A stretch of DNA of 64,000 bases, from contig CAZDSS010000002.1 of assembly GCA_964508185.1 (NCBI GenBank), forward strand, positions 6,674 through 70,673, given 5' to 3'. A program made the position numbers and the translations under genes. This document shows positions 7,747 through 39,751 of this stretch, in pieces. Within the stretch, counting starts at the first letter, position 1; every line of letters starts with the position of its first letter. Below the pieces are notes generated by a model. It worked only from the letters and a program-made list of their open reading frames with translations. It searched no databases and was not told the DNA's origin. The DNA is from an uncultured Sphingomonadales bacterium (GTDB taxonomy: Bacteria > Pseudomonadota > Alphaproteobacteria > Sphingomonadales > Govanellaceae).

Positions 7747-7758
7747 GGACCGCCTGAA

Positions 7759-10118: not shown

Positions 10119-10122
10119 GACC

Positions 10123-11214
10123 ATGGCGAAGCTTGCCGGAATCAAGGTCATCGACCTGTCGCAGTTCCTGCCGGGGCCGATGCTCACCCTCATGATGGCG
10201 GACCAGGGGGCAGACGTCATCAAGATCGAACCGCCTGCGGGCGACCCCGCGCGCGGGCTGGAACCCTATGAAGCGGGCCAGTCCATCTGGTTCCGCAATC
10301 TCAACCGGGGCAAGCGCAGCATCGCGCTCGACCTCAAGTCGGAAGCGGGAAAAGAGAAGCTCTGGGAGCTGATCGCCGACGCCGACGTCTTCGTCGAAGG
10401 CTTCCGCCCGGGCGTCATGGCGCGGCTCGGCTTTTCCTACGAGGCGGTCGCGGCGCGCAATCCGCGCATCGTCTATTGCTCCGTCTCCGCCTTCGGGCAG
10501 GAGGGGGAACTGTCGCACCATCCGGCTCACGACCTTGCGGTGCAGGCCTTGTCCGGCTTCCTGTCCGTCAATGACGGGCGCGACGGGCGGCCCGTGGTGC
10601 CGGGGGTGCCCTCCGCCGACATGGCGGCGGGGCTGACCGCGCTCTCGGCCGTGCTCATGGCATTGATCGGCCGCGAGCGCACGGGACGGGGCGACCATAT
10701 CGACGCCGCCATGTTCGACAGCCTGATCCCCTGGTGCGCCCATATCGTGGGGACGGCGATTCATGGCGGCGAGCCGCCGCGCTCCCACAGCCAGCGCTCC
10801 CTGGGCGGCGCCGCCTTCTACAACGTCTATGAAACCGCCGATGGAAAGTTCGTGGTGCTGGGCGGGCGCGAGACCAAGTTCGTCGCGAACCTCCTCAACG
10901 CCCTCGGCCGTCCGGACCTCATCCCGCTCGGCAGCGAGCCGCCGGGACCGGCGCAGGCGCCCCTCGTCCGCTATCTCGAGGAAACCTTCCGCGCCCGCAC
11001 GCGCGACGAATGGGTCGCCTGGTTCGCCGACAAGGACGTGGCCTTCGCCCCCGTCCTCGACTTCCGCGAGGCCTTGTCCGCGCCCCACGTCGCCGAACGG
11101 GGCATCGTCGTCGAGGCCGACGGCGCCCACCATATCGCGCCGGCCATCCGCTTCCGCTCCGAACCGGACTGGAAGCCGCGGCCGGCGCCGGAGCTCGACG
11201 CCGATGGCCGCTGA
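10123..11214 (+). CDS. Family III (CaiB/BaiF) CoA-transferase, second tandem copy
   Basis: 363 aa. LAGIKVIDLSQFLPGPMLTLMMADQGADVIKIEPPAGDP is the typical N-terminus. Confidence 0.88.
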   Translation: MAKLAGIKVIDLSQFLPGPMLTLMMADQGADVIKIEPPAGDPARGLEPYEAGQSIWFRNLNRGKRSIALDLKSEAGKEKLWELIADADVFVEGFRPGVMARLGFSYEAVAARNPRIVYCSVSAFGQEGELSHHPAHDLAVQALSGFLSVNDGRDGRPVVPGVPSADMAAGLTALSAVLMALIGRERTGRGDHIDAAMFDSLIPWCAHIVGTAIHGGEPPRSHSQRSLGGAAFYNVYETADGKFVVLGGRETKFVANLLNALGRPDLIPLGSEPPGPAQAPLVRYLEETFRARTRDEWVAWFADKDVAFAPVLDFREALSAPHVAERGIVVEADGAHHIAPAIRFRSEPDWKPRPAPELDADGR

Positions 11215-22344: not shown

Positions 22345-24729
22345 TCAGAACGCCTTGCGGACGATCACGCCCCATTCGGCCTTCGAGGGCGGCGTGATGC
22401 TGAAGGCGCGGACCGAATCGCCCGTCGCCGCAGCCGGCACGCCGAGATCGATATAGCGCATGATGCCGTCCGGCGTCTCGTTGCCGAGCACGTTCTTGCC
22501 GTAGGCGGTGACGCGCCAGCCGTTGTTGTCGGTCACGCCCGCCTGCAGGTTGACCTTGGTGGCGTCGCCGGTATGGGCCAGGTTGTGCACCTGGGCGTAG
22601 AAGCGGCTGCGATAGATCACGTCGATGCCGGAGAAGAACGCCCAACCGTTTCCGATCTCGTGATCGAAGCGCAGGCCGATGGCGCCGTTATGCTTGGATA
22701 CCAGCGGCGGACGCTGGCCGACGATGGACGCCGCCTCGCGGCAGCCCGGAAGGTCGAGATTGATGGCCGAGCCGGTCTTGCAGGCCGCGCCCAGCAGCAG
22801 GACCGCATGATCGGGCTCGACACCCTCGCGGATCTTGGCATCCAGATAGGTGTAGTTGAACTGCAGGGTGAACATGCGGTTGGCGAGCGGCAGCGCGCCT
22901 TCCACCTCGATCCCGCGGATCCGCGTCTTGCCGATATTGGCCTTGTAGGAGTCGATCAGGGTTTCGGTCACATAGGTGTTGGTCAGGACCTGGTTCTTGT
23001 AGTTCTGCCAGAAGGCCGAAACGTTCAGGTAGTCGAAGCCGAACTTCGAGGTCTTGAAGCCGATTTCGTAGTTGATGAGCTTCTCTTCGTCATAGGTGGT
23101 GGTCGGCGCGGTCAGCGGGTTGAAGCCGCCCGGCGAGTTGCCCTGGGAATACTGGGCATAGACCGACCAGTCGCGGGCGGGCGACCAGTTGACGGTGACG
23201 CGCGGCAGGGTCGCCTTGAACTTGGCGTTGCGCTCGCCAGCCGTGCCGACGATCTGGTCGGGGTTCGGGTACAGGAGCTCCGCCAGTTCCTCGTCGCTGA
23301 AGAGGTCGCCGGCGCGGTAGGTGACGCCGGTCGAGCGCACCTTGTCGATCTGGCGACGCAGCTCGGCGCCGATGGTGAGGTCCTCGGTCACGTCCAGATC
23401 GATGCCGCCGAAGAAGGCGAGGTTCTTGACCCGCGTGGCATCAGGCAGGATGTCGAGGCCCACTTCCGTCGCCTCCACATAGTCCGGATTGGGCTTCACG
23501 CGGTCGCGGCTGGTGAACACACCGACGCGCCAGCGGAAGCGATCCGCGCCGGGCGAGGTCAGGCGCCATTCATAGGTCTCGGTCTCGCGCTTCAGGCCGT
23601 CGGTGGTGTTGAACGGCGACTGGCTGCAGTCCTGGTTGCCGATCGGAATGAAGGCGCAGGCGCCGCGGAACAGGAAGAAGTTGCGGTCGTCGAAGGACTG
23701 GTCGGTGCCCACCACCTGGACCATGTCGCTGTAGCCCACCTGGAACGACGCCTCGTAGCCCGAGCCCATGATGTCCCAGCGAATGTCGCCGATGAAGCGG
23801 TCGGCGTTGCGGTAGAGGCCCGGCCGCATCAGGCGGTCCGTATTGATCCCGTAGGACTTGGGAACCTGCACCTCGCCGCAGTAGTACTGGCGGGTATCCA
23901 GAAAGCAGTTGTTCTCGGACGCGGGCTGCAGGCCGATGGCATAATGGCCGTCGTCGTCCTTCTGATGGATCCACTGCACGGAGGCGCTGATGTCCGGCGT
24001 CGGATCAAGGAACACGCCCGCCATGTACTGATGCGTCTTCTCGTCGCCAAGGCGCTCGCCCGGGATCAGCGCATTGTCGTACTGGCCGTTCACGTCATAG
24101 AACTTGAAACCCGCCTGAACGCCGAGCCAGGGGGTGACCGGCGTCGAAAGGAAAGCGCTGAATTCCTTGCGGTTGTAGTTGCCCACATTGGCCGTCACCT
24201 GCCCCTCGAGCTCCTCGCCCGGGCGCTTCAACACCACGTTGACGGCGCCGCTCAGGGTGCCGCGGCCGAAGACCGCCGACTGCGGGCCCTTGATGACCTC
24301 GACCCGCTCCACATTGGCGAGATCGAGCGACGAGAAGTCGCCGAGATAGGGCACGCCATTGAGGAACACGCCCACCTTGCCCTCGGCCATGAGGATGTTG
24401 GACGCGCCGCGGATCACCGGACGGTCGCCGTTGCGGCCGAAGGCCTCCTGGATCTGGAAGCCGGGGGTGAATTCGGCGATGTCCACGATGCTCTGCACCA
24501 GCCGGTCTTCCATGCGCAGGGAGTCGAAGGCGCTGACGGCGATCGGCACGTCCATCAGGCTTTCCTCGCGCTTGCGCGCCGTGACCACGATGTTCTCGAG
24601 GGTCATGGACTGGCTGGACGCCGTGGGCGCGGCGTCCTGCGCCTGGGCGTAGACGGGCGCCGCGAAGGCGACGGCAGCCGCGGACAGCATGAGGTTGAGG
24701 CGGCGAAGAGAATGCAGTCTGTGGGTCAT
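22345..24729 (-). CDS. TonB-dependent receptor
   Basis: 794 aa. Signal peptide ending AAPVYAQA. Plug region IVVTARKREESLMDVPIAVSAF and VEVIKGPQSAVFGRGTLSGAVNV. C-terminal Phe. Confidence 0.92.
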   Translation of the reverse strand: MTHRLHSLRRLNLMLSAAAVAFAAPVYAQAQDAAPTASSQSMTLENIVVTARKREESLMDVPIAVSAFDSLRMEDRLVQSIVDIAEFTPGFQIQEAFGRNGDRPVIRGASNILMAEGKVGVFLNGVPYLGDFSSLDLANVERVEVIKGPQSAVFGRGTLSGAVNVVLKRPGEELEGQVTANVGNYNRKEFSAFLSTPVTPWLGVQAGFKFYDVNGQYDNALIPGERLGDEKTHQYMAGVFLDPTPDISASVQWIHQKDDDGHYAIGLQPASENNCFLDTRQYYCGEVQVPKSYGINTDRLMRPGLYRNADRFIGDIRWDIMGSGYEASFQVGYSDMVQVVGTDQSFDDRNFFLFRGACAFIPIGNQDCSQSPFNTTDGLKRETETYEWRLTSPGADRFRWRVGVFTSRDRVKPNPDYVEATEVGLDILPDATRVKNLAFFGGIDLDVTEDLTIGAELRRQIDKVRSTGVTYRAGDLFSDEELAELLYPNPDQIVGTAGERNAKFKATLPRVTVNWSPARDWSVYAQYSQGNSPGGFNPLTAPTTTYDEEKLINYEIGFKTSKFGFDYLNVSAFWQNYKNQVLTNTYVTETLIDSYKANIGKTRIRGIEVEGALPLANRMFTLQFNYTYLDAKIREGVEPDHAVLLLGAACKTGSAINLDLPGCREAASIVGQRPPLVSKHNGAIGLRFDHEIGNGWAFFSGIDVIYRSRFYAQVHNLAHTGDATKVNLQAGVTDNNGWRVTAYGKNVLGNETPDGIMRYIDLGVPAAATGDSVRAFSITPPSKAEWGVIVRKAF

Positions 24730-24912: not shown

Positions 24913-26496
24913 TTAACGGCCCAGCCCGATGACGCCGGGATTCATCAGGCGACCGGGATCCAGGATCGCCTTGATGCCTTTGAGAAGCTCGGCCGGAACG
25001 GGGGACAGCGCCTCGAGATAGGGATAGGTCCGGCCGATCTGGTTCGATGCGGCCCCGAGCTTTCGGAAAAGCTGCACCGTCTCGAGGCGCAGCTGGTCTA
25101 CGAGCTTGCGGGCCGCGGGATTGGTCTCAGGCTCCGTCATCTTCTGCAGGAAGGCGGGCTCCGGCGCGCGGCGGTGGAGCGGCTGCCAGGAATCCTTCCA
25201 GTGGAACACGGGCTCGAAGCTGAAGGCATGGTTGGAGAGCGCCGAGGCGAGCCGGGTAAGCCACACGCCATGCGCCGCCATTTCGGAAAGATAGGGCGCG
25301 ATCATGGCGTCGAACGCCGCGATAAGATCGCGCGCGTCGGAATGCGCCACCTTGGCGTTCAGCGCCGCCCAGCGGCTGCCGTCGGCGCCGAGCACCGCAT
25401 TGAGATCCTGGAAAAGCGTCGCCCGCGCGACCCGCGGAATGGTGGGCGCGACCGGCCGCCCGCCGAGATCGGCGGCGATCCGCGCCGCGCGACGGAGGTC
25501 GTGCCGCACGGCGGCGGCGCAGCGCCCGGCCGCCGTCATGTGGAGGGAATAGTGCCCCGGCGGGATGAACTGCGTCCCCCCGCGGGCGAGGGACAGAAGC
25601 GCCGATGCCGCGCGCAGCGGTCCGCCCGCACGGCGCGCGACGGAGAGCGCCGTCCGCAGTTTTTCGCCGCCATCCGCCGCGATCGCCCCGGTGGAGACGG
25701 GATCGAGCACATAGATTTCTTCGGCGAGATCCGCCCGCGCAATGGCCGAAAGCGCATCGGCCGCATGCGCGAGATCGGCGAAGGCGAAGCTCAGATAGTC
25801 CTCATGCCGCGGCGCTTCGATGAGGCGCAGGCTTGCCGCCGTCTTGATGCCGAAGGCGCCGCCGTCATGGGTGAAAAGGCCGGTGAGATCGGGCCCGAAG
25901 CTGCGGAGGAACGGCTTCGCGCCCACGGCGAGCGCCCCCTGCCCCGTCCTCAGGATGCGCCCGTCGGCCAGCACCACTTCGAGCCCCAGCACCATCTCGG
26001 CGGCGGAGCCGTAGCGGGCCGAGCCGAAGAACAGCGCCCCGTGGGACAGCCCGCCGCCGACCGTGGCGCCCGCGCCGGAAAAGGTGCCGAAGAACGGCAG
26101 CCGCAGCCCCCGCGGCTTCAGCGCCGCCGCGATTTGGCGCCAGGTGACGCCCGCTTCCACCGTCATCACCATGTCCTGTTCCGATATGTGGATGATGCGG
26201 TCGAGGGCCGAAAGGTCGAAGGTCACGGACCTGTCCGTCGGCGGCGCATAGCCGCCCGTATAGCTGAGCCCGCCGCCCCGCGGCAGGACGGCATAGCCGC
26301 GGGACGTTGCGGCGGCGACAGCGGCGGCAAGGGCATCCCGGTCCTGCGGCCGCACCACGGCGGCCGGCAGCGCGCCCGTCACATGGAGATCGGCGGCGGC
26401 AAGCCGCCGGGCCTCCATGTCCGTGAGGACGGAGCCCTTGCCCGCGGCGCTTTCCAGCGCCGCCAGCAGGTCCTGGTCGGTCACATGGGTTTCCAC
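24913..26496 (-). CDS. FAD-binding (PCMH-type, GlcD-like) oxidoreductase, paralog of 144-1712
   Basis: Motifs AVLPRGGGLSYTGGY and VEAGVTW...LKPRGL. I trimmed the ORF-track 650-aa ORF to the in-frame GTG at 26496; the extension overlaps the real membrane gene. The GTG at 26484 is an alternative. Confidence 0.82.
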   Translation of the reverse strand: METHVTDQDLLAALESAAGKGSVLTDMEARRLAAADLHVTGALPAAVVRPQDRDALAAAVAAATSRGYAVLPRGGGLSYTGGYAPPTDRSVTFDLSALDRIIHISEQDMVMTVEAGVTWRQIAAALKPRGLRLPFFGTFSGAGATVGGGLSHGALFFGSARYGSAAEMVLGLEVVLADGRILRTGQGALAVGAKPFLRSFGPDLTGLFTHDGGAFGIKTAASLRLIEAPRHEDYLSFAFADLAHAADALSAIARADLAEEIYVLDPVSTGAIAADGGEKLRTALSVARRAGGPLRAASALLSLARGGTQFIPPGHYSLHMTAAGRCAAAVRHDLRRAARIAADLGGRPVAPTIPRVARATLFQDLNAVLGADGSRWAALNAKVAHSDARDLIAAFDAMIAPYLSEMAAHGVWLTRLASALSNHAFSFEPVFHWKDSWQPLHRRAPEPAFLQKMTEPETNPAARKLVDQLRLETVQLFRKLGAASNQIGRTYPYLEALSPVPAELLKGIKAILDPGRLMNPGVIGLGR

Positions 26497-27143
26497 AGGC
26501 TGACGACCACGATTCCGGCGATGAACACCCAAAGCAGGATCAGCACGCTGGTGGCCCGCCAATAGGTGCGGCGGATGATGGCGTTGGTCTCGTCCGTCGG
26601 CCCCTCCTTGGCCATTCTGGCCCAGGTGCGGAAGTGGGACAGAAGCGCGATGCGGATCCCGACGCCCGACGCCATCACCCCGGCAAAGAGGCCGAGCTTC
26701 CAGCGCAGGAACAGCGGCATGGGCCAGTCGCCGCCGATGAGCCCGAAGGCGAGCGCGATGAGGATGACCATCAGCACATAGCGCGAACCGCGGTCGAAGG
26801 TCTGGAGCTTCTTGCCCACGGGCGTCTTGCGCAGGCGGTGCGTCACCTCCACAAAGGCGAGCCACAGGGCGGCAATGATGCCGGCGGCGATGGCCACGGT
26901 CTCGCCCCCGGGGAACCAGCCGTAAAGGGCGGCGATCGCCGTCCCCAGCCCCGCCTGCAGGATGAGGGCGTAGCGCACATGCTGGTCCACCTTCATGACA
27001 TGGTCCATGAGGCGCGAGCGGTCCGGGAACGGCAGCTCGTCATGATAGCAGACATAGCGGTAGGTGCTGTTGATGACCAGCTCGGACCCGAGCCAGTAGC
27101 CGAGCACGGTGATATGGGCGGCGAGCAGCCAGGAAATGATCAT
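26481..27143 (-). CDS. Polytopic membrane protein of unknown function (paralog family M, copy 2)
   Basis: 220 aa, about 6 TM segments. Motifs H-ITVLGY-WLGSE and KVDQHVR. The ATG overlaps the stop of the upstream family-S gene (ATGA at 27140-27143). Confidence 0.8.
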   Translation of the reverse strand: MIISWLLAAHITVLGYWLGSELVINSTYRYVCYHDELPFPDRSRLMDHVMKVDQHVRYALILQAGLGTAIAALYGWFPGGETVAIAAGIIAALWLAFVEVTHRLRKTPVGKKLQTFDRGSRYVLMVILIALAFGLIGGDWPMPLFLRWKLGLFAGVMASGVGIRIALLSHFRTWARMAKEGPTDETNAIIRRTYWRATSVLILLWVFIAGIVVVSLWKPM

Positions 27144-27892
27144 CGCGCGTCTCCCGTGGCGTCGTAAGCGGTGAGTTCGTAGGCGGTCATCATGTAGCCG
27201 CCGACGGTGGCCTTCAGCAGCACGTAATCACCATCGGCCGTGCACCAGAGATCATAGGGCGGATAGGCTTCGGGCAGCCCCGGCACGTCCACCATGCGGA
27301 AATGGAGGGCGTCGAACCGTCCCGCCGCCACGGTGAGCTTGGTCGGGCCCACATACTGGATCGCGAGATCGGTGCGGAAAAGAAGCGGCCCCGTCGCCCC
27401 GCGGTGGTCTGGGGACGACAGCAGGATGTCCCGGATCACCTGGACGCCTGGGCCTTGAGAGAGGTCGTAGAGGGAGAGAAGAAACCCGTCATTGACCATG
27501 GCATGGTTGCCGAAGGCGACCAGAGGCTTGTCGAGCGCCATCGTCTGGGTGACGCGCCCTTCCGCCGTGGTGAAGGCCTCGCACTCGGCCAGATCATCGG
27601 CAAAGCGGAACCAGCCCGAGCCGCGGAAAGCCCCGCCCACCGCGATGCGCACGAAGCCCTCGAGCGGCCGGTTGTCGGGGCCGAGGCGCAAGCTCACGTC
27701 GCGCACCACGGCGGGGGCGTCATCGATCTCGCCGTGGGCGGCGATCACCCGCGAGCCGTCCTGATGGATGTCCATGCGGAACTGCTCACGCCCGCGCTCG
27801 GCGCCCTTCCGTTCGGGCTTGTCGCTCGTATAGCGGATATAGCCCGTGATGCTGCGGCGAACGCCGCCGGTCGCTTGCCTGTTCGCCATCAT
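27140..27892 (-). CDS. Cytoplasmic protein of unknown function (paralog family S, copy 1)
   Basis: 250 aa with no signal peptide. AGGAGGGGGA lies upstream of the ATG. Collinear with 36580-37290: DGSR, GxGWxRF, FGxH, SSxxHxGxxGP, TVxAGxF, LWC, GGYxxTxYEL. Confidence 0.8.
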   Translation of the reverse strand: MMANRQATGGVRRSITGYIRYTSDKPERKGAERGREQFRMDIHQDGSRVIAAHGEIDDAPAVVRDVSLRLGPDNRPLEGFVRIAVGGAFRGSGWFRFADDLAECEAFTTAEGRVTQTMALDKPLVAFGNHAMVNDGFLLSLYDLSQGPGVQVIRDILLSSPDHRGATGPLLFRTDLAIQYVGPTKLTVAAGRFDALHFRMVDVPGLPEAYPPYDLWCTADGDYVLLKATVGGYMMTAYELTAYDATGDAR

Positions 27893-27923: not shown

Positions 27924-29057
27924 TCATTTCCAGTTGGACTTGTCGCGCAGGTAGCGGGCTGCATCCTGCAGGTCCTCCGGCTGGTAATCGGCGAAGAGAT
28001 TGGGCGAGTAGCGCGGCACATAGCCGTTGAGCACGTCCATGTAGAGCGCGGGATGAAGCGTGGGCTGGCGATGCCGGGCGCGGAAGGCGCCGATGGGAAT
28101 GCGCGCGGTGACCAGCGTCTCGTTCGGCGACTTCGCGATCGCCATCGCCTCGCCGTCGGGACCATAGATGGCGGAGCCGCCCGCATTGCTGTCCTCGAAG
28201 AAGGGCGAGCCGGGCGAGATCGCCTGGTTGGCGACGGCCACATAGACGCCGTTGTAAAGCGCGGTCGCCGCCACATCGAGCGGGCTGAAGCCGCCCGTCG
28301 CCGTGCGCAGGATCACTTCCGCCCCCTTGATGGCCATGGCGCGGAACAGTTCGGGCTCCCGCTGCACGGAACTCATGGCGATGTTGCCGAGGGGCGTCTG
28401 CACCACGGGAATGACGGCGTCCTGCCCGTACATTTCCACGTAACGGTCGTAGACGTCGTAGATGGTGGTGGTGAAAAGCTCGATCTGGCCGCCGAACGCG
28501 CCCTTGATGTTCCGCGCCTTCCATTCGCGCGCGAGAATCTTGCCGTCGGGCCCGATCATGGTGGTGATCGACAGCACATGGCCGGGCCAGTCCTTGTCGC
28601 GGGCATAGGAGCCGAACACCAGATAGATGCCGCGCTCCCGCGCCTTCCTGGCGAGCGCCTCCGTCTCCTCGCCGGGGATCTCGATCGCGACCTTCAGGAT
28701 GTCCTTCCGCGTCCATCCCGCGCCGAAGCCGGTGATGGGGAATTCGTGGAAGAACAGCATGTCCGGCCCCATGCCGAAGCCGAATGCCGCGTCGATGAGG
28801 TTCAGCATATGCTGCAGATTGGCCTTGCGGCTCGCATCCACCCGGCCGAGATCGACGGGAATCGAGCGGGACTGGGCGACGCCCAGGGTCCACATTTCCT
28901 TGGCGAGCGGCACGGTCGGATATTTCCCGTCCGCCCCGATCTCCACAGCCTTGCCCGGCGTCGCCGCCCCGGCGATGGAGGGCGCAAGACCCAGGGCCGC
29001 CGTCAGGCCAAGCCCGCCGGCAGCGCCCAGAAGCCCGCGGCGCGTGAGGGCGCTCAT
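27924..29057 (-). CDS. Tat-signal-bearing carbon-nitrogen hydrolase (nitrilase superfamily) fold protein lacking the catalytic cysteine
   Basis: 377 aa. Twin-arginine signal MSALTRRGLLGAAGGLGLTAALGLAPSIAGAA. CN-hydrolase blocks FFHEFP, REWKARN, GNIAMSSVQREPELFRAMAIKGAEVIL and YNGVYVAVANQA...GGSAIYGPDGE. The translated protein contains no Cys residue. Confidence 0.8.
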   Translation of the reverse strand: MSALTRRGLLGAAGGLGLTAALGLAPSIAGAATPGKAVEIGADGKYPTVPLAKEMWTLGVAQSRSIPVDLGRVDASRKANLQHMLNLIDAAFGFGMGPDMLFFHEFPITGFGAGWTRKDILKVAIEIPGEETEALARKARERGIYLVFGSYARDKDWPGHVLSITTMIGPDGKILAREWKARNIKGAFGGQIELFTTTIYDVYDRYVEMYGQDAVIPVVQTPLGNIAMSSVQREPELFRAMAIKGAEVILRTATGGFSPLDVAATALYNGVYVAVANQAISPGSPFFEDSNAGGSAIYGPDGEAMAIAKSPNETLVTARIPIGAFRARHRQPTLHPALYMDVLNGYVPRYSPNLFADYQPEDLQDAARYLRDKSNWK

Positions 29058-29216
29058 TTCGCACCTCCGCGGCGTTCGACCCGGCGACCATGGGATTCGG
29101 CAACCGCCGCGCGGGCGACAGAACTGGAAATTCTCATCTGGGCTCCCCTTTGTGCTTGATATGATCGGGCGGAACCGTTCCGGCCCCGGTGCCTTCCCCG
29201 CGCTCCGCCCCGCCCC

Positions 29217-29259
29217 ACTTGTCTGGACAAATTTTCACGTTAATCGGGGGCTGTCAAGC
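29217..29259 (-). promoter_or_regulatory. Putative promoter plus operator for the CN-hydrolase/S/M/FAD-oxidase operon (operator copy 4, TTGTCTGGACAA at 29219-29230)
   Basis: Same architecture as 5578-5620: minus-strand TTGACA (29257-29252), a 17-nt spacer with TG, AAATTT, then the palindrome. 34/43 nt are identical to copy 1. Confidence 0.6.
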
Positions 29260-29408
29260 GGCTTCGGACTGTTTGCCGCACGCAGAAAGGGCGCAGCCCG
29301 GCACCGTCGCCATGCGTCAGGATCGCATGTCGGCGGCCCGGGCAGCGCCCTGGCGGATTGTCGTCGGATTGTGTCCGAGCCTCACTTGCGCGCTTGCTTC
29401 ATCGCGCC

Positions 29409-29933
29409 TCAGATGGCGCCGCGCGGCTTGAAGCTGTAGTAGCTCGGATCGTCATAGGCCTTCCAGTCGCGGGACACGCGCACCTCGTTGATGACCGTGC
29501 GCTGGAACAGGCGGCCCTTGCGGTACCAGTGCCAGGTGCGGTTCTTGGCCTCGCGGTCCTCGGCCACGGTGATCATCTCGTAATAGCGGAAGTCCGGCTC
29601 ATGGGCGCGGGTCCAGCCGACCATGATCGTGCGGTTGGTGGGATCGAGGCTCACCGAGCCCGTCCAGCCGTCGATGAGATCGTTCTTGATCCACACCCGG
29701 TCGCCCTTGAAGACGCCGTCGAAATACCGGATCTCCTGCGTGCCGTCGGCCCAGGTGTAGATGTTGGTCTGGGACAGGCGCGCTTCGCCGTCGGGGCCGT
29801 CGAACAGACGGCAGACGAGGCGCGACTTGTGCCGGTCGATGATGTTCTGGTCGGCGTCCAGATGGACATATTCGCCTTCCCAGACGCCCGCCTGGTCGGC
29901 AACGAGCGGCATCTTTTCGCTGATGATCTTCAT
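29409..29933 (-). CDS. Hypothetical protein, beta-rich, no signal peptide
   Basis: 174 aa from the ATG at 29933, preceded by GGAGGTG. The ORF-track start at 30041 has no RBS. I recognise no family. Confidence 0.65.
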   Translation of the reverse strand: MKIISEKMPLVADQAGVWEGEYVHLDADQNIIDRHKSRLVCRLFDGPDGEARLSQTNIYTWADGTQEIRYFDGVFKGDRVWIKNDLIDGWTGSVSLDPTNRTIMVGWTRAHEPDFRYYEMITVAEDREAKNRTWHWYRKGRLFQRTVINEVRVSRDWKAYDDPSYYSFKPRGAI

Positions 29934-30039: not shown

Positions 30040-30945
30040 ATGGAATCCCGTCACATCCGTCATTTCCTTGCGGCCTACGACGCCGGCACCTTCGCCGCCG
30101 CCGCCGAGCGCCTGGGCCTCAGCCAGCAGGCGGTGAGCAAGAGCATCCTTCGCCTTGAAAGCCAGCTCGGCGTGCGTCTCTTCGAGCGCGACGGGCGGCG
30201 CATCCGCCCCACCGAATATGCCGAGCTGTTCCTGCCCCATGCCCGCACCATGGCGGCGGAGGCGGAGCGATTCCGCGCCGGCCTCGATGACATGCTGGGC
30301 GGGCGGCGCGGCCTGGTGCGTGTGGGCGTGGGGCCGAGCGCCGCGGCCCACATGGTGGCCGCCGCCGCCGACCATCTGGTGCGCGAACGGCCGGGGCTTC
30401 GCATGCAGGTGCTGGCCGGGATCTACGAGGACATGATCGAGGATCTGGTGTGCGGCAAGCTCGACCTGTTCGTCGCCGTGCGCCTCGTGGAGCGGCGCTC
30501 CCCCCTGATCCGGGAAGAAAAGCTCTGCGACATCGATTATGTGGTGGTGGCGGGGCCGGACCATCCGCTGGCCGATCTCGAGGACATCACCCTTGAACGG
30601 CTTGTCCAGGAGCGCTGGATATCCGGCGCCAATCTCGGCGTCATCGAGGAAGCGATCGAGAACAGCTTCGCCGCCGAGGGTCTCGCCCTCCCCCGGCCGG
30701 AGATCGAGACCACGTCCCTGCTTTTCACCCTCGCCATGCTCGACCGCGGGCGGCATCTCAGCATCCTGCCCGAAATGCTGGTGAGCCACGAAATCGCTTC
30801 CGGCCGCCTCGTGAAGCTCAGGCTGCGCGCCGCGCCCTGGCGGCGGCCGCTGATCGTGGCGACGCGCGCGCGGGGCGTGAAATCTCCCCTCGTCGAGATG
30901 CTGATCGCGCAGTTCAGAAATCATCTCGCAACGGCACAAGGATAA
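30040..30945 (+). CDS. LysR-family transcriptional regulator
   Basis: 301 aa. N-terminal HTH MESRHIRHFLAAYDAGTFAAAAERLGLSQQAVSKSILRLESQLGVRLFER. Divergent from 29409-29933. Confidence 0.9.
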   Translation: MESRHIRHFLAAYDAGTFAAAAERLGLSQQAVSKSILRLESQLGVRLFERDGRRIRPTEYAELFLPHARTMAAEAERFRAGLDDMLGGRRGLVRVGVGPSAAAHMVAAAADHLVRERPGLRMQVLAGIYEDMIEDLVCGKLDLFVAVRLVERRSPLIREEKLCDIDYVVVAGPDHPLADLEDITLERLVQERWISGANLGVIEEAIENSFAAEGLALPRPEIETTSLLFTLAMLDRGRHLSILPEMLVSHEIASGRLVKLRLRAAPWRRPLIVATRARGVKSPLVEMLIAQFRNHLATAQG

Positions 30946-31745: not shown

Positions 31746-33212
31746 TTATTGCCACTTCCAGCGGCTGCGGGTTTCAAGATACTGGTCGAGGCCCGTCTTC
31801 TTCAGGATGTCGCCCAAGGCCCATTCCGCCTCGCCGAGCACTTCGGCAAGCTTCACGGACCGGTGGCGGCCGTCGGATATCAGAAGCTCGCCGTCCACGT
31901 AGACTTCGCGCACCGCCCAGGGATCGTTGGAATAGACGAGGTTGGAGAGCGCCGTCTGCCACGGCGCGATGGGCAGGCGGCTTGCGTCGATGACGATGAC
32001 GTCGGCGCGCTTGCCCGTTTCCAGGGACCCGATCTCGTCTTCCATGTGAAGCGCCGCGGCGCCGCCGCGGGTCATGAGCTCGAGCGCAAGCTCCGCCCCG
32101 CCGAAGGACGCCCGTTCCAGCCGCTGCTTCTGGAACAGCATGGCCATCTTCATGGTCTCCCACACGTTCTGGCTGTTGTTGGTGGAAGCACCATCGACGC
32201 CAAGGCCGACGCGCACGCCCTTGTCGAGAAGCTCCGCAAGCCGCGCGACCCCCGCCGCGTAATAGGCGTTTGCCACGGGATTGTGGGAGATCCCCGTCTG
32301 CCGTTCGGCAAGGCAGGCGATCTCGTCGTCATCAAGCCAGATGGTATGGGCGAGAAGCGTCTTTGGCCCCAGCACGCCGAGGCGCTCGAGCTCCGAGACG
32401 CTGCCATGGCCGAAGCGGGCGCGGCTTTCGTCCCGCTCGTCCTGGGAGCTTGCCACATGCATGGTGAAATGGCTGCCCGTGCGCACCGCCAGGGCATGCA
32501 TGGCCTGGATCATCTCCGGCGTGCAGCGGAGAACGCCGAGCGCTTCCGGCACCACCGACAGGCGGTCGGAATTGTAATCCCTCTGCAAGCGCAGAAGCTC
32601 GTCCGTCGCCTGTTCCGGGGTTTCGCGGAAGGCCTCGGGGATGAACTGGGCCGGGCTGCTGTCGTCGGCGCTGTCCATGACGATGCGCGACACGACGGCG
32701 CGCATGCCGAGGGTCTGCAGCGCCGTCATCACGCCGTCCATGGATTCCCGGCGCGGCGTGCAGATCTCGCCGCTCGCCGTGGTGGTGACGCCCGTGGACA
32801 GCAGCTCGAGGCCGGACAGGAAGGTCCCCGCCGCCGCCGCGCGCGCGCTCATGCTGTCGAGGACCGGCCACATGCCCTTGGCGAACCACACTTCGAGCGG
32901 CATCTCGTCATAGATGCCGCGCAGGACGCCGTTCCCGAGATGGGTATGGCAGTTGACGAGGCCCGGCATGATGATGTGGCGCTCGAACGAACGGCGGGTC
33001 ACGTTGGGGGGAACGCTCCCCAGTTCCGACATGGGCCCCACACGGTGGATGCGCCCGTCCTTCAGCCACACGAAACCCCTGGCGAACGCCCGGCGCTCGT
33101 CGTCCATGGTAATGACCACGGCATCGGTCAGGATCACTTCCGGTCCCTTGGGGGTGATCCGGTCGCTGCCCGGCCTTGCGGCCCGTGCCGCATCCTCTTG
33201 CCTGCCTGTCAT
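31746..33212 (-). CDS. Amidohydrolase (TRZ/ATZ / SsnA-like metal-dependent hydrolase or deaminase)
   Basis: 488 aa. Motifs PGLVNCHTHLGN and later H/D ligands (HVAS, HTIWL, VGLGVDG). Confidence 0.85.
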   Translation of the reverse strand: MTGRQEDAARAARPGSDRITPKGPEVILTDAVVITMDDERRAFARGFVWLKDGRIHRVGPMSELGSVPPNVTRRSFERHIIMPGLVNCHTHLGNGVLRGIYDEMPLEVWFAKGMWPVLDSMSARAAAAGTFLSGLELLSTGVTTTASGEICTPRRESMDGVMTALQTLGMRAVVSRIVMDSADDSSPAQFIPEAFRETPEQATDELLRLQRDYNSDRLSVVPEALGVLRCTPEMIQAMHALAVRTGSHFTMHVASSQDERDESRARFGHGSVSELERLGVLGPKTLLAHTIWLDDDEIACLAERQTGISHNPVANAYYAAGVARLAELLDKGVRVGLGVDGASTNNSQNVWETMKMAMLFQKQRLERASFGGAELALELMTRGGAAALHMEDEIGSLETGKRADVIVIDASRLPIAPWQTALSNLVYSNDPWAVREVYVDGELLISDGRHRSVKLAEVLGEAEWALGDILKKTGLDQYLETRSRWKWQ

Positions 33213-33322: not shown

Positions 33323-34612
33323 TCAGCAACCATCCGTCACGGCGCGCGTCAGGCGGCGGAAGGCCGGATAGGCGCCCGCAAGGAGCAGGAAGGATCCCGC
33401 GGCCGATCCCGCGAAGGTCGCGGACAGCGCAAGATCGATGGCCGAGCCGCCGGGCCAGAAATCGTTGAGCGAGCCCACCGCGAGCGGCCCGAAGGTCGCC
33501 GAGACGAGCCCGACGAGGGCGGTATAAAGGGCCGTCATGCGGCCGCGGAGCTCGTTCGGCGTGATGTCGGCGATGGCGGCGAGCACCGCGACCGCGGGAT
33601 AATTGGCGAAGACGCCGGACAGCGCGAACAGCGCCATGCACCATTTCCCGTCCGGCATCAGGGGCGCGAGCGCGCCGGGCACGAGACAGGCGAGCGAGCC
33701 CCAGAGGCATACGAGCCAGGACGCATGGGCGAAGCCGCGGCGGGTGAGCCAGTCGGTGACCCAGCCGACGGAGACGGAGCCGAAGACGCCGACCACGCCC
33801 GCAATCGCGCCGAAGACCAGCGCCACGTCCTGCGCCGCCCAGGCGTATTTGCGCATGAACAGGGCGGGCATGAAGGCAAGCTGACCGTACATGGCGGCGA
33901 AAGCGAAGGCGACGCCGCCGAAGAGCGCGGCGAAGACCCAGCCGCGGCGGAGAACGAAACGCACCGCCGCCCCGTGGGACACCGGCTCCTCGCTCAGTTC
34001 CTGCCGCACCGGCTCGCGAAAGCCCATGAGCAGGATGGGGATCAGAAGCCCGAGCCCGCCGAGCAGCATCATCGCCGCCTGCCAGTCGGCCACACCGAGA
34101 GGGCCTGCCATCAGGCTGCCGACGGCGACCGCCGCCGCCGCCGCGAAATAGGCGCCCGAGGTACCAAGGGCCGTGCCCGCGACGAAGACGCCGTAGCCCG
34201 TCGCCCGCCGCTCTGGCGGGAACATGTCGGCGATGAGTGACGTGGATCCCGGCTGCACGATGGATTGCGCCGCGCCGGTAACGATGCGGCCGACCACGAT
34301 GCTCATGTAAGAAAAGACGCCGAAGGCCGTGCCCGCGCTCCAGATCAGGGCGCAGACCGCAATGAGGCGCAGGCGATGGAAACGGTCCACGAGCCAGCCC
34401 ATGAACGGCGCAGAGAGGGTATAGGGTATGGCGAAGCACGCCCCGGTGATGAGCCCGATCGCCGTGTCGCTGAGGGCGAGATCGGCGCGCATGGGCTCCA
34501 CGAAAAGGCTGATGCCGATCCGGTGCAGGAAGCCGATGGCATAGGCGAAGGTGAGCGCAAGCGTCATGCCCCAGGCCGCGCGCGTCGATGGCCATTGTGT
34601 CGCCGGGATCAT
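33323..34612 (-). CDS. MFS transporter
   Basis: 429 aa, about 12 TM segments. MFS loop motif MGWLVDRFHRLR. Confidence 0.85.
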   Translation of the reverse strand: MIPATQWPSTRAAWGMTLALTFAYAIGFLHRIGISLFVEPMRADLALSDTAIGLITGACFAIPYTLSAPFMGWLVDRFHRLRLIAVCALIWSAGTAFGVFSYMSIVVGRIVTGAAQSIVQPGSTSLIADMFPPERRATGYGVFVAGTALGTSGAYFAAAAAVAVGSLMAGPLGVADWQAAMMLLGGLGLLIPILLMGFREPVRQELSEEPVSHGAAVRFVLRRGWVFAALFGGVAFAFAAMYGQLAFMPALFMRKYAWAAQDVALVFGAIAGVVGVFGSVSVGWVTDWLTRRGFAHASWLVCLWGSLACLVPGALAPLMPDGKWCMALFALSGVFANYPAVAVLAAIADITPNELRGRMTALYTALVGLVSATFGPLAVGSLNDFWPGGSAIDLALSATFAGSAAGSFLLLAGAYPAFRRLTRAVTDGC

Positions 34613-35919
34613 GCACTCAACTCCTGCACCACAAGAGGCCGCCCCACCCGGCGGAGCACCAGAAGGCCCGCAATGAGCAGCAGGGCGGCGACGCCGAAGA
34701 CGCCAAAGCGCTGCTCCCCCGTGATCACGGTGGAGAGCGCCACAAAAAGCGGCGCCATGAAGGATGACGCCCGCCCGATCATCACGTAAAGCCCGAAGGC
34801 TTCGCCGAGGGCGTCGGGATCGGCGAGAGAGACGAGAAGCGACCGGCTCGCCGCCATGATGACGCCGAGCATGCCGCAGGCGGCGACCGCCAGGGCGAGA
34901 TAGGCGTAGTCGGCGGGCCCCGTGAAGCCCCCGCCAGCGCCGCGCGCCGTCGCGATCACCAGCGCAAGCGCCCCCGTGATGGCGAGCAGGCCGGAAAGCG
35001 CCAGCACCAGCGTGCGGCGCGTGCCGAACAGCCCTTCAAGCCGCCCGGCGACGAGCCCTGCCGCAGCGCCGGCGATGAGGCCGAGGAAACCGAACACCGT
35101 CACCTCCGCCGTGCCCCAGCCGAGACGAGTCGCGGCGACGATGGAGATGAATGAGAAAAGGCACATGGTGCCGTCCCAGTAGAGCATGCGCGCAAGCAGA
35201 AAGGTGCGAAGGCCCTTCTGCGCCATGAACCGGGACCAGAGGCCCGAGAGCTCGCGAAAGCCCCGGGCAACCGCCGCGCCGAGCGACGCCTCGCTCCGCG
35301 CCGCGGGCTGCGGGCAGAACAGAAGGCACGGCAGAATGAAAAGGACGAGCCACAAGCCGCTTCCTGCGGAAAGCGCCCGCGCCGCCACATCATCCCCCAC
35401 CCCCGCCGCCGTCGCGCCGTAGCCGAGGCCGAGATAGAGAAGGCTCGCGACGAAGCCGAGCCCCACGCCAAGGCCGCTCAATTTTCCGGTCTCCGCCGCG
35501 GGCACAAGCCCGGGCAGCAGGCTGTCCGTATGTATGCGCGACCATTCGATCCCGAGCTGGGCGAGGCCGACGGACGCCAGCACCCACAGCACATGCCCCG
35601 GCGTGGCGGAGGCGAACCACAGGCTCAGAAGCGCCGCACAGGCAAGGGCGACGCTCATCACCAGCCACGGCCGCCGCGTGCCGGTGGCGTCCGCCAGCGC
35701 CCCGGCGACGGGCGCCGTCAGGATCAGGGTGAGGCTCGTCGCCGACAGGCCATAGCCCCACCAGGCGGTGCCGCGCACCGGGTCCGCGGCCACGACGCTC
35801 ACGAAGAAGGGCGGAAAGGCGAGCGACAGCACGAAGGAGAAGAACGGCTCCCGCGCGAAGTCCGCAAGCGCCCAGGACAGGCGGGCGCGGCCCGCTTTCT
35901 CAGACAAACTTGGCCACAC
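34609..35919 (-). CDS. MFS transporter, UMF1/Atg22-like subfamily
   Basis: 436 aa. N-terminus SWALADFAREPFFSFV is typical of UMF1-type MFS. The GTG at 35919 is taken from the ORF track; the TTG at 35907 is an alternative. It overlaps the upstream membrane gene. Confidence 0.78.
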   Translation of the reverse strand: MWPSLSEKAGRARLSWALADFAREPFFSFVLSLAFPPFFVSVVAADPVRGTAWWGYGLSATSLTLILTAPVAGALADATGTRRPWLVMSVALACAALLSLWFASATPGHVLWVLASVGLAQLGIEWSRIHTDSLLPGLVPAAETGKLSGLGVGLGFVASLLYLGLGYGATAAGVGDDVAARALSAGSGLWLVLFILPCLLFCPQPAARSEASLGAAVARGFRELSGLWSRFMAQKGLRTFLLARMLYWDGTMCLFSFISIVAATRLGWGTAEVTVFGFLGLIAGAAAGLVAGRLEGLFGTRRTLVLALSGLLAITGALALVIATARGAGGGFTGPADYAYLALAVAACGMLGVIMAASRSLLVSLADPDALGEAFGLYVMIGRASSFMAPLFVALSTVITGEQRFGVFGVAALLLIAGLLVLRRVGRPLVVQELSA

Positions 35920-37363: not shown

Positions 37364-39649
37364 TTACATCTGGTAGCGCGCGGTGAGCGTCCACATGCGC
37401 GGCGGATTGAAGTAGATGGCGTTGAAGCCGAGCGCCGGGATGAAGAACTGGCCGGTGGAATATTCTTCCTTGAACAGGTTCTTCACCGCGAGCGCAAGAC
37501 GGAAGCGGCTGTCGTCCGTCTCCCAGGCGACCTGCGCATCCACGAGATCATAGCCGTCCTCGCGCGACGCCACCGGGTTGCAGGAGCTGTGATAGTAGCC
37601 GCTCTTGCGGGTCCAGTTGCCGCCGATGGACATGGTGCCGCCCAGCACCTCGGGGATCGCGTAGTCGATCGCAAGGTTGCTCGAGAAGCTCGGCGCGAAC
37701 TTCTGCCGGAGCTTCGCCGTGCCGGTGCCCACCGGGCCGCAGTCCGCCACCTGGTCGAAATTGATCTTGGTGTACTTGTTGGCGAGATAGCCGACCGAGG
37801 CATTGACCTGCAGATTGCGGATGGGAAGCGCGGTCAGTTCAAGCTCCACGCCCTCGGTGCGCACGTCGCCCACGGAGAAGCGGGTGAGCGCGCCTGTCAC
37901 CTGGTCGGTGCCGGTGCCCTGCAGATCGTCGATCTCGTTGCGGAACACGGCCACGTTGGTGCGCAGGCGGCGGTCGAGCCAGTCGGCCTTGACGCCCGCC
38001 TCATAGGCCCAGACCTTCTCCGGCGCGATGGGCTCGAGCTTGTAGAGCTGGGTGCTCATCTCGCGGCCGTCGAACGCGCCCGACTTGAAGCCCTTGGAGA
38101 CCGAGGCATAGAGCAGCAGGTCATCGCGCACCGCGTAATCCACCGCAAAGCGCGGCGTGACGGAGGACCAGCTTTCCTTGATCTGGCGGGCGAGCGGCAC
38201 GGTGACCGCGCCCGCCGGGCTCGCGCCGTCGCACGGGCCGGCGGAGAACACGTCGCGGCCCACGGGCGCGGCGCAGATCAGGCTCGGCGAACCGTCGGGA
38301 TGGAACATGGCCGAGGCGAAATCCTTCTCGTCCCGGGTCCAGCGGATGCCGGTCGTCACCGTCCAGCGGTCGGAAAGGTGCCACGAGCCCGACGCGAAGA
38401 CGGCGATGCTGTCCGTATCCAGCGTGGTGTCCGCATAATCGTTGGCGCCAGCAGGCGCGAGGATCATGTTCTCGGTGATCTGGCTGTTTTCCTCGCGGAA
38501 CCAGTAGACGCCGACCACGTAATCAAGCAGTCCGCCGAAGGCCTGGCCGGACGCCTGCAGTTCCTGGCTGAACTGCTCCTGGTCCTGGTCCTGATAGAGA
38601 TGGAGGCACGGCAGATCGAAGCCGAAGCAGGTATCCTGCCCGTCGGCGTCCAGTACGAATTCGGAGCTCATCTCGCGCCAGGCGGTGATGGAGCGCAGCG
38701 TCACCGCGCCGAGATCGTAGCTGATGTTGAGCGAGGCGCCGCGCTGGTCGATCTCGCTCATGGGGTTCGTGAGATCGGAGCGCAGGGTGTAGACGTCGCG
38801 GTCGCCGTCCACCTGCTGGTTCTTGTCCCACAGGCCGAGATCCGCCGGCGGCTGCAGGAGGACGCCGGTCGCGAACGCCGGGTCCGAATGGTCGCGGATC
38901 TCGTCATAGGAAATGAGGATGTCGAGGCGCTCGTTGGGCTGCCAGCGCAGGGAGGCGCGGCCCGCCAGCACGTCCTGATCGTTGACGTCGGCGCCGTTCA
39001 CCAGGTTCTTGGCCCAGCCGTCGCGCTGGCGCGACAGGAAGGCAAGCTGGCCGTAGAGCCCTTCGGCGAGCTTGCCGGAGACGCTCGCGCGCACGTCGAT
39101 CCGCTCGTGATTGCCGACGGTGCCTTCGAGCATCAGGCGGGTTTCCTCGTCCGGCTTGCGGCTCACGAGCTTGATGGCGCCGGCCGAGGTGTTGCGGCCG
39201 TAGAGCGTGCCCTGCGGTCCGCGCAGCACTTCGATGCGCTCGATGTCGTAGAGGTCGAACAGCGCGCCGTTCTGACGCGGAATGTAGACGTCGTCCACAT
39301 AGATCCCGACCGGCGGGTCGGAGGTGAAGAAGCTTTCATCCTCGCCGATGCCGCGGAGCGCGGCGCGGGCGCCGTTCTGCAGGCCCGTATTGGGCTCCAT
39401 CCAGAGGTTGGGGACGAAGTTCTGCACCTCGCGGACGGAGAAGACCTGCATGCGGTCGAGGGCGTTGGCGTCAAAGGCGCTGACCGCGATCGGTACGTCC
39501 TGCAGACGCTCCTCGCGGCGCTGGGCGGTGACGACGATCTCGTCGAGGGCGATGCCCTCCCGCAGCTGGGCGTGGCCGCTGTCGGCGACGAATACGGATG
39601 AAGCAAGGGCAATAGGCAGTACTAACGAACGACCAATGGCGTGATCCAT
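37364..39649 (-). CDS. TonB-dependent receptor
   Basis: 761 aa from the ATG at 39649 (GGGAGGA upstream). Plug region IVVTAQRREERLQDVPIAVSAF and IEVLRGPQGTLYGRNTSAGAIKL. The C-terminal residue is Met rather than the usual aromatic. Confidence 0.9.
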   Translation of the reverse strand: MDHAIGRSLVLPIALASSVFVADSGHAQLREGIALDEIVVTAQRREERLQDVPIAVSAFDANALDRMQVFSVREVQNFVPNLWMEPNTGLQNGARAALRGIGEDESFFTSDPPVGIYVDDVYIPRQNGALFDLYDIERIEVLRGPQGTLYGRNTSAGAIKLVSRKPDEETRLMLEGTVGNHERIDVRASVSGKLAEGLYGQLAFLSRQRDGWAKNLVNGADVNDQDVLAGRASLRWQPNERLDILISYDEIRDHSDPAFATGVLLQPPADLGLWDKNQQVDGDRDVYTLRSDLTNPMSEIDQRGASLNISYDLGAVTLRSITAWREMSSEFVLDADGQDTCFGFDLPCLHLYQDQDQEQFSQELQASGQAFGGLLDYVVGVYWFREENSQITENMILAPAGANDYADTTLDTDSIAVFASGSWHLSDRWTVTTGIRWTRDEKDFASAMFHPDGSPSLICAAPVGRDVFSAGPCDGASPAGAVTVPLARQIKESWSSVTPRFAVDYAVRDDLLLYASVSKGFKSGAFDGREMSTQLYKLEPIAPEKVWAYEAGVKADWLDRRLRTNVAVFRNEIDDLQGTGTDQVTGALTRFSVGDVRTEGVELELTALPIRNLQVNASVGYLANKYTKINFDQVADCGPVGTGTAKLRQKFAPSFSSNLAIDYAIPEVLGGTMSIGGNWTRKSGYYHSSCNPVASREDGYDLVDAQVAWETDDSRFRLALAVKNLFKEEYSTGQFFIPALGFNAIYFNPPRMWTLTARYQM

Positions 39650-39751
39650 GGAAATCCTCCCGAAATCTCCCACAGTGACCGGCGCTTGTGCCCGATCATC
39701 CAGCTTCATGCTGGGCCGCAGATCGCCTTCAAGGCCATCAACTAGTTGTCT

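Follow-up and report, generated by a model that had tools for sequence, protein, structure and literature searches.

The 64,000-nucleotide stretch of DNA considered here (the window, from contig CAZDSS010000002.1 of an uncultured Sphingomonadales bacterium) carries at 27924..29057, on the minus strand, a complete coding sequence of 377 codons plus stop, with an ATG start and a TGA stop, for a protein that has the carbon–nitrogen (CN) hydrolase fold and contains no Cys. The assignment follows from the open reading frame (ORF), from a match to Pfam family PF00795 and from identity to the GenBank protein HEY8350914.1, and a Shine–Dalgarno sequence, GGAGG, is located 5′ of the gene start. An earlier note on this DNA, made from the letters alone, had singled out the ORF as encoding a nitrilase-superfamily protein, exported by twin-arginine translocation (Tat), in which the catalytic Cys is replaced by Ser; the extent of the ORF proved exact, and the strand, which the note did not state, is minus. 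Overlapping plus-strand ORFs at 28053-29159 and 28627-29439 were rejected as the gene, as nothing supports them and it is the minus frame that matches Pfam and has over 1000 homologues. The motifs quoted at the time are all found in the translation, from TRRGLLG...AGAA at the N-terminus through FFHEFP, REWKARN and IAMSSVQREPE to YNGVYVAVANQA...GGSAIYGPDGE, and the count of Cys over the 377 residues is zero, as claimed. Proteins wholly free of Cys make up only 34 of 120 homologues; the trait common to the family is the lack of Cys at the nucleophile position, rather than its lack anywhere.

The CN-hydrolase domain spans residues 73-326 (28080..28841, minus strand), as defined by the Pfam CN_hydrolase match (E 6.9e-22, 78.5 bits against a cut-off of 23.2), an AlphaFold2 model and Foldseek. 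The model, computed with 57 homologues in the input, has a predicted local distance difference test score (pLDDT) of 82.5 and a predicted template modeling score (pTM) of 0.84, and its top 50 Foldseek matches in the Protein Data Bank (PDB) are all nitrilase-superfamily enzymes, with aliphatic amidase 2uxy as the best (E 8.7e-19) and AmiF formamidases, D-carbamoylases and cyanide dihydratases also among them, which bears out the fold called from motifs. AmiE and AmiF (PDB 2uxy, 2plq, 2e2k and 5g3o) are the best matches by structure as well as by sequence (Foldseek E ~1e-18, profile E 2.9e-17). They share with the window protein the alpha-beta-beta-alpha fold and the Pro-Glu...Arg helix motif, and AmiE also its catalytic Glu (E59, equivalent to E105) and catalytic Lys (K134, equivalent to K180), in agreement with the catalytic role that had been ascribed to the FFHEFP and REWKARN blocks. 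AmiE aligns, moreover, with the first part of a conserved C-terminal extension, up to about profile position 349; this extension (residues 331-377, 27927..28067, minus strand, recognized from alignments) is present over its whole length in a clade of Cys-containing paralogues, and in its first part only in aliphatic amidases. Unlike AmiE, the window protein has no Cys, places Ser229 in the slot of C166 and has a nucleophile strand two residues shorter; compared with AmiE and AmiF alike, it has His for Pro before the catalytic Glu, a Tat signal, and some 17 additional residues between Lys180 and the nucleophile elbow, helix 200-210 among them. Neither the aliphatic amidase equivalog NF009802 (38.8 against a cut-off of 427) nor the formamidase equivalog NF009803 (24.5 against 406) is reached, and no NCBIfam model is reached by the window protein, its relatives or its uncharacterized neighbors. 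By fold and descent the protein belongs to the nitrilase superfamily, closest to its amidase/formamidase branch, and it stands outside the superfamily's thiol-enzyme mechanistic class, as it has no Cys nucleophile. To our knowledge, all branches of the superfamily characterized so far are thiol enzymes, the catalytic residues being a Glu-Lys-Cys triad or a Glu-Lys-Glu-Cys tetrad. The names given to the family in public databases are all automatic, being either "nitrilase-related carbon-nitrogen hydrolase", the name of HEY8350914.1 in GenBank, or "aliphatic amidase", and the latter label is misleading.

At the position of the Cys nucleophile lies a remodeled nucleophile elbow, IAMSSVQREPE (residues 226-236, 28350..28382, minus strand), delineated from alignments and the model. 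The Cys slot is occupied by Ser229 (codon AGT, 28371-28373, minus strand), followed by Ser230 (28368-28370, minus strand), both placed by alignment. When AmiE is aligned with the family profile, E59, K134 and P172 pair with E105, K180 and P235, hence C166, at Pro minus 6, faces Ser229; pairwise alignment with plant NIT4 also puts the Cys slot at Ser229, and in an L-INS-i alignment of 79 full-length relatives all classical Cys fall in column 229. In the model, strand 224-229 and a helix starting at 235 form the strand-turn-helix of a nucleophile elbow, with Ser229 at the strand end. The nucleophile position, which the earlier note had singled out for checking, thus comes out at Ser229 by the AmiE and NIT4 registers, the L-INS-i alignment and the modeled strand end. 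A nucleophile elbow has been described for Lnt (PMC5500888).

The spacing from G224 to the Pro-Glu pair is two residues longer in every Cys-containing relative than in every member of the Cys-less clade, as can be seen when GNIATxVCSEGFxPE of the former is set against GNIATSSVQREPE of the latter. Alignment by hhalign with the closest Cys-containing paralogues (probability 100, E 9e-86) drops the Val-Cys dipeptide into a gap, keeps Ser230-Pro235 in the same register as in the paralogues and leaves Ser229 directly preceding that stretch, as the paralogue Cys does. Read from these alignments, the loss of the Cys is an indel that remodeled the elbow and not a clean Cys-to-Ser point substitution. 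Of the proposed replacement of Cys by Ser, the Ser in the slot thus stands and the simple substitution does not, the two-residue deletion being clade-wide and Thr, Gly or Ala taking the place of Ser in some members. A placement of the Cys at Val231 came from an early alignment by hidden Markov model columns only and was superseded upon recognition of the two-residue indel.

Conservation at the slot was surveyed in 121 close family members at the protein level and in 77 nonredundant genomic loci at the codon level, and Cys was found at the position in none of the proteins and none of the loci. Residue 229 is Ser in 115 of the aligned proteins, Thr in five and Ala in one, and residue 230 is Ser in 118 and Ala in three; codon 229 is Ser-AGY in 51 loci, Ser-TCN in 18, Thr-ACN in five and Gly-GGC in three. 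A hydroxyl at residue 229, from Ser or Thr, is found in 120/121 proteins and 74/77 loci (96-99%), and Ser persists across the AGY and TCN codon classes, with Thr (ACN) as the bridge between them.

The catalytic Glu and Lys are retained. His104 and Glu105, within FFHEFP (28743..28748, minus strand), are each present in 121/121 sequences, with Glu105 set by the AmiE alignment, and so is Lys180, the catalytic Lys that aligns with AmiE Lys134 (28518..28520, minus strand); R182, Q232, E234, P235, E236 and R239 are likewise invariant. Glu193 (28479..28481, minus strand) is Glu in 120 sequences and Asp in one, and from its alignment with an invariant Glu of the Cys-containing paralogue clade it is the probable second catalytic Glu; the profile alignment pairs AmiE Glu142 with Lys185 and not with Glu193, and loop 186-191 has a pLDDT below 50. 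Lys185 itself is near-invariant (120 Lys, one Arg) and Gln232, Glu234, Arg182 and Asn183 are newly invariant, none of the five being present in Cys-containing relatives. His104, which takes the place of a Pro in Cys-containing relatives, is by alignment a hallmark of the Cys-less clade.

A predicted Tat signal peptide covers residues 1-32 (28962..29057, minus strand) and consists of T-R-R-G-L-L-G, a Gly/Ala-rich hydrophobic region and a probable A-G-A cleavage site; residues 1-33 are disordered in the model, with pLDDT below 50. The Arg pair (Arg6-Arg7, 29037-29042, minus strand) is invariant in a 57-sequence alignment and found in 112 of the 113 homologues whose N-terminus is covered, and in this respect the twin-arginine signal that had been called is well founded. 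TIGR01409 scores 15.0 bits, marginally below its 16.7 cut-off, and Pfam TAT_signal gives no match at E up to 1. From these features the protein appears to be exported to the periplasm via Tat. A periplasmic location had also been held unusual for the superfamily, and indeed we found in the literature no report of a soluble, Tat-exported member, nor any study of a Cys-less or Tat-exported nitrilase-superfamily protein or of this locus; the single periplasm-facing precedent that the literature yielded is the membrane-integral Lnt, the nitrilase-fold domain of which has its active site facing the periplasm (PMC5500888). Lnt differs in being an integral membrane acyltransferase with a Glu-Lys-Cys triad, neither soluble nor Tat-exported and not closely related, whereas the window protein is a single soluble domain following a signal peptide, without the eight-helix membrane domain and with no match to TIGR00546.

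Searches at E up to 1e-3 return more than 1000 homologues of the window protein, the best 120 of which are 59-100% identical to it, and a genome scan places relatives in at least 288 species, among them Sphingomonadales, Caulobacterales, Xanthomonadales including Stenotrophomonas, cyanobacteria, actinobacteria, Acidobacteria and others. The family is under strong purifying selection, with a mean column identity of 66% over 57 diverse homologues. Full-length matches from a wider search, of 1.84 billion cluster representatives, were arranged in a neighbor-joining tree without bootstrap, which splits them into 27 Cys-containing and 51 Cys-less sequences and suggests that the latter form one clade. 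The Cys-containing group has Cys229 and Pro or another residue at position 104, with an RR signal in 0/27 and His104 in 0/27; in the Cys-less group the RR signal is found in 38/51 and His104 in 33/51. The Cys-less state is associated with both features in Fisher tests that ignore shared ancestry (p = 2e-11 for the RR signal, 3e-9 for His104), and both associations may go back to one event in an ancestor. A deletion of two residues from the nucleophile strand is common to the whole Cys-less clade, and the Pro-to-His change by the catalytic Glu to most of it. The closest Cys-containing paralogues (e.g. P0155, P0147, P0152, P0175 and P0190), with motifs FPEF[ST], HWKA and GNIATxVCSEGFxPE, are 37% identical to the window family over 335 columns of the hhalign alignment. 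They share with it a family-specific insertion, TT[IV]xDVxDxxVxxYG, a C-terminal PPNL[FY]..Y.P.D tail, the Glu, the Lys and Glu193, and differ from it in keeping the Cys on a strand two residues longer, in having Pro before the Glu and in being cytoplasmic, without signal peptide.

Some Cys-less sub-lineages with a Tat signal are also without Glu105 and Lys180 (e.g. P0143, P0151, P0158, P0170 and P0171), and there are signal-less Cys-less sub-lineages with Met, Ile or Leu at position 229 (P0137, P0138 and P0154). A broader set of Tat-signal relatives (P0134, P0140, P0143, P0151, P0158, P0170, P0171, P0178-P0182 and P0186) has none of the catalytic Glu, Lys and Cys (e.g. FHAWA / QWQACH / GNIALHAV); by these motifs they are evidently pseudoenzymes of this fold, with export apparently retained. 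Other relatives, of 640-745 residues, contain tandem CN-hydrolase domains (P0153, P0162, P0168, P0174, P0193 and P0198). In P0174, P0198 and P0168 one domain has the Glu, Lys and Cys motifs and the other is degenerate, and P0153 and P0162 have Cys in both; the proteins with one intact and one degenerate domain look like built-in pseudo/active heterodimers. In a Hyphomonas metagenome-assembled genome (MAG; locus L004), a signal-less 342-residue CN-hydrolase gene (6682-7710) adjoins a family member (8001-9152), and its product carries Ser where the Cys would be (AIASEEILYPE) and Arg in place of the catalytic Lys (YRRL); it appears from these motifs to be another Cys-less nitrilase-fold protein, possibly of independent origin. 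Locus L085 carries the Cys-containing sister family as three tandem paralogues (7001-10396) directly 3′ of a fused TRAP (DctM) transporter gene, and two of the three have identical N-termini and catalytic motifs.

Turning to the neighborhood in the window, the gene for the hydrolase-like protein is preceded by one for a 174-residue DUF3598 protein (29409..29933, minus strand), a calycin/lipocalin-type beta-barrel without signal peptide according to its AlphaFold2 model (pLDDT 95.7) and its Foldseek matches to BFA1, the DUF3598 structure 2o62, nitrobindin and lipocalins; a DUF3598 gene is the commonest immediate upstream partner of the family gene. A divergent LysR-type regulator (30040..30945, plus strand) is conserved in the closest orthologous loci. 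Downstream come genes for a 250-residue protein without signal peptide, DUF3108-like by its UniRef name (27140..27892, minus strand; in the same operon in the closest orthologues), for a 220-residue protein judged from its sequence to be a membrane protein and without family assignment (26481..27143, minus strand; start overlapping the preceding stop), for a FAD_binding_4/FAD-linked oxidase (24913..26484, minus strand; probable GTG start at 26484 overlapping the preceding stop) and for a TonB-dependent outer-membrane receptor (22345..24729, minus strand), the commonest neighbor of the family. These four genes are tightly packed or overlapping, and the whole arrangement from LysR gene to TonB receptor gene is common to the closest orthologues. 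Sequence searches of the PDB with the 250-residue and 210-residue neighbors gave no meaningful matches. The pair of 220-residue membrane protein and FAD_binding_4 oxidase (24913-27143; also L004, L028, L032 and L042), stop and start often overlapping, holds together even where it is apart from the hydrolase-like gene, and the membrane protein may anchor the oxidase to the membrane or accept its electrons. Just past the LysR gene, minus-strand genes for uptake and C–N hydrolysis are plentiful: a metal-dependent amidohydrolase of the Amidohydro_1 family is encoded at 31746-33212, MFS transporters at 33323-34612 and at 34609-35919, and another TonB-dependent receptor at 37364-39709.

Between the DUF3598 and hydrolase-like genes, at 29287-29352 on the minus strand, the RNA would fold into a long, near-perfect hairpin (stem about 26 bp) ahead of CUUUCU (dG -51.8 kcal/mol, z -3.06 against shuffles; weak miRNA-like matches only in Rfam), which could be a repeat element, or a terminator or attenuator that separates the two genes. 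In Edaphosphingomonas there is no such gap, and the genes overlap. A 27-codon upstream ORF (MRISSSVARAAVAESHGRRVERRGGAK) at 29054-29137, minus strand, has a strong AAGGGGAG ribosome-binding site, and its TGA stop shares bases with the start codon of the hydrolase-like gene, as ATGA; the small ORF could encode a leader peptide, serve translational coupling or have arisen by chance. A search for a riboswitch in the 350-bp gap 5′ of the hydrolase-like gene, by Rfam E-value scan, returned only miRNA-like matches to the long hairpin, and a scan for sigma-70 promoters and terminators gave nothing exceeding the shuffled background.

Across the 77 loci, a TonB receptor gene is found within 6 kb of the family gene in 43 and within 1.5 kb in 24. 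The other recurrent neighbors are DUF1838 (27 loci), DUF1330 (25), DUF3598 (24), the 220-residue membrane protein (22), two VOC/glyoxalase proteins (20 and 18), MFS transporters (18), a 395-residue methyltransferase (16) with a 129-residue partner (15), the FAD oxidase (14) and a Tat-signal amine oxidase (13); genes for Zn-dependent alcohol dehydrogenases co-occur with family loci too. Neighbors were clustered from raw ORFs of high-GC DNA, spurious clusters of antisense ORFs being ignored, and at least three different arrangements can be told apart. The recurrent clusters include no ABC or TRAP binding-protein-dependent transporter, and tblastn detected no second CN-hydrolase gene or Cys-containing paralogue in the window. 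Judged by its gene content, the locus resembles one for TonB-dependent uptake and catabolism. In loci L020-L073, a modular gene set follows the family in three arrangements across Sphingomonadales, Erythrobacteraceae and Xanthomonadales; it comprises DUF1838, DUF1330, two VOC/glyoxalase proteins, a Zn-dependent alcohol dehydrogenase, an MFS transporter, an alpha/beta hydrolase, a Tat-signal amine oxidase and the 395-residue methyltransferase with its 129-residue partner, and we found no literature on it.

From its conservation, the gene product is best regarded as a probably functional, Tat-exported member, under selection, of a Cys-less clade in the amidase/formamidase part of the superfamily. 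As to what it does, the three options raised in the earlier note, a Ser nucleophile, a pseudoenzyme or binding protein, and a new chemistry, are all still live, and sequence analysis does not choose between them. Our tentative preference, short of calling it probable, is for a thiol-free periplasmic hydrolase that would use the hydroxyl of Ser229. In such an enzyme this hydroxyl, or that of Thr in some orthologues, would replace the thiol and attack an amide- or ester-type carbonyl to give an O-acyl enzyme, with Glu105 as the base and with Lys180 and Glu193 positioning and polarizing the substrate and the hydrolytic water. The adjacent TonB-dependent receptor would bring the substrate into the periplasm, the product would be taken up (by an MFS transporter in many loci) and metabolized by co-clustered cytoplasmic enzymes under LysR control, and the loss of the thiol would suit the oxidizing periplasm. 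We lean to this proposal because a hydroxyl at position 229 is so widely kept, because what appears to be the remainder of the tetrad is retained, because the genomic setting looks enzymatic, because the loss of the Cys goes with the RR signal among the relatives, and because a Ser placed in an active site of this fold can accept an acyl group. Since Glu and Lys are lost in other Cys-less sub-lineages and kept across phyla in the subfamily of the window protein (Proteobacteria, Cyanobacteria, Actinobacteria, Acidobacteria and others), these residues are arguably needed here. Hydrolysis of C–N bonds through an O-acyl enzyme is known from type II L-asparaginase, which is periplasmic and uses Thr, and for the amidase-signature enzymes with their Ser-cisSer-Lys; these would share the proposed thiol-free chemistry on unrelated folds, and no homology is claimed. 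Closer by fold is the C387S variant of Lnt, which still forms an O-ester acyl intermediate (PMC6828757).

Several observations weigh against a nucleophilic Ser229. The residue varies while its neighbors are invariant, with some 6% Thr and 4% Gly or Ala. Three loci, from MAGs of Planctomycetota, Gammaproteobacteria and Steroidobacteraceae, encode Thr228-Gly229-Ala230, with Met231, in place of Ser-Ser-Val (matches at L079 843-1901, L080 2884-3912 and L081 518-1546), and one family protein has Ala229. The changes K185M, F195M, T197S and G256S accompany Gly229 in these loci, the Tat signal, H104, E105 (FHEFP), K180, E193 and QREPE all being retained, so the Glu, Lys and Glu can be maintained without a hydroxyl at position 229. 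In related sub-clades residue 229 is Met, Ile, Leu, His or Ala, or the Glu and Lys are gone, and hence the fold can persist in the periplasm without canonical catalysis. The two-residue deletion remodels the elbow, so that a geometry fit for nucleophilic attack is not guaranteed. Engineered Cys-to-Ser amidases and carbamoylases are inactive or stalled. Lnt C387S stalls too, its reaction not being completed (PMC6828757). The Gly229-Ala230 sub-lineage is a natural test case for the importance of residue 229. The K185M change in it gave the idea of a Ser229-Lys185 dyad, which was rejected, as P0122, P0125 and P0126 have Ser229 without Lys185.

Much of the same evidence can be read as describing a pseudoenzyme, a noncatalytic periplasmic binding or scaffold protein in which Glu105, Lys180 and Glu193 would hold an amide-like ligand or a partner, and we consider this a doubtful but serious possibility. 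It would account for the clade-wide absence of the catalytic Cys and the shortened elbow, in a superfamily described as one of thiol enzymes (PMC5500888), for a slot that accepts the small residues Ser, Thr, Gly and Ala amid invariant neighbors, and for the persistence of Tat-signal sister sub-clades without Glu, Lys or Cys; some tandem two-domain relatives, moreover, couple a degenerate domain to an intact one. It sits less easily with three of the four catalytic residues, the probable Glu193 included, being invariant or nearly so across phyla, unlike in the degenerate sister sub-clades, and with a hydroxyl at position 229 that survives switches of Ser codon class. Nor is there, among the recurrent neighbors of the gene, an ABC or TRAP transporter for a binding protein to serve, or, in the window, a second CN-hydrolase gene to act as catalytic partner. 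A heterodimer with a nearby catalytic, Cys-containing paralogue was rejected on the latter count. The (near-)invariant Glu, Lys and Glu argue, as far as conservation goes, against a complete loss of function, without proving activity.

An active enzyme without a covalent nucleophile at position 229 we regard as unlikely. Here Glu105 or His104 would activate water, perhaps with a cofactor or metal acquired before export, or the reaction would be non-hydrolytic, and Ser229 would merely form a hydrogen bond to the substrate. His104, invariant in the family and absent from the Cys-containing relatives, persists even in lineages without Glu105 and Lys180, although its association with the Cys-less state may go back to one ancestral event and not to functional coupling, the Fisher tests taking no account of phylogeny. 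The Gly229-Ala230 lineages retain all other conserved pocket residues, and the family has gained the invariant Gln232, Glu234, Arg182 and Asn183 and the near-invariant Lys185, which the Cys-containing relatives do not have. Proteins that acquire their fold or a cofactor in the cytoplasm are the typical clients of Tat export, which also fits; a metal or cofactor site, however, has no direct evidence, and simple general-base catalysis is poor on unactivated amides.

That a sequencing error hides a Cys codon, or that this copy is decaying from a Cys-containing family, is so improbable that it can be set aside: codon AGT of Ser229 is a single substitution from TGT, and nothing else was found in its favor, but the identical protein is in GenBank (HEY8350914.1, from a Sphingomonadales MAG) and on nine independent contigs, which excludes a sequencing error, the ORF is intact and well conserved, and no homologue among the 121 proteins or 77 loci has Cys at the slot. 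The three grounds on which the earlier note had offered to be overturned, a different fold, a masked Cys codon and homologues that keep the Cys, have accordingly all fallen away, and the survey that it had suggested came out, for the close homologues, uniformly without Cys at the column.

The Cys-less clade is large, ancient and unstudied. It may, and we put this no more strongly than as a tentative reading of its sequences, be an active thiol-free branch of the superfamily, with Ser or Thr as O-nucleophile or with water activated by His and Glu, adapted to the oxidizing periplasm and carrying out the periplasmic step of an unrecognized pathway of TonB-dependent uptake and catabolism; the proteins of the proposed pathway are almost all uncharacterized (DUF3598, DUF3108-like, DUF1838, DUF1330, the 220-residue membrane protein with its FAD oxidase, and VOC). 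Nucleophile switches of the Cys-to-Ser/Thr kind are known in proteases and Ntn hydrolases, and pseudoenzymes are common in enzyme superfamilies. If active, a clade spread over several phyla that has no Cys, keeps the rest of the machinery and is periplasmic would extend the chemistry of the fold, and would provide a natural Cys-to-Ser/Thr nucleophile switch and an oxidation-resistant amidase scaffold. Should the clade be inactive, it would be, to judge from our literature search, the first described widespread pseudoenzyme family of the superfamily. Either way, the gene is a marker of a conserved, uncharacterized TonB-dependent locus in Sphingomonadales, Xanthomonadales, Caulobacterales and others.

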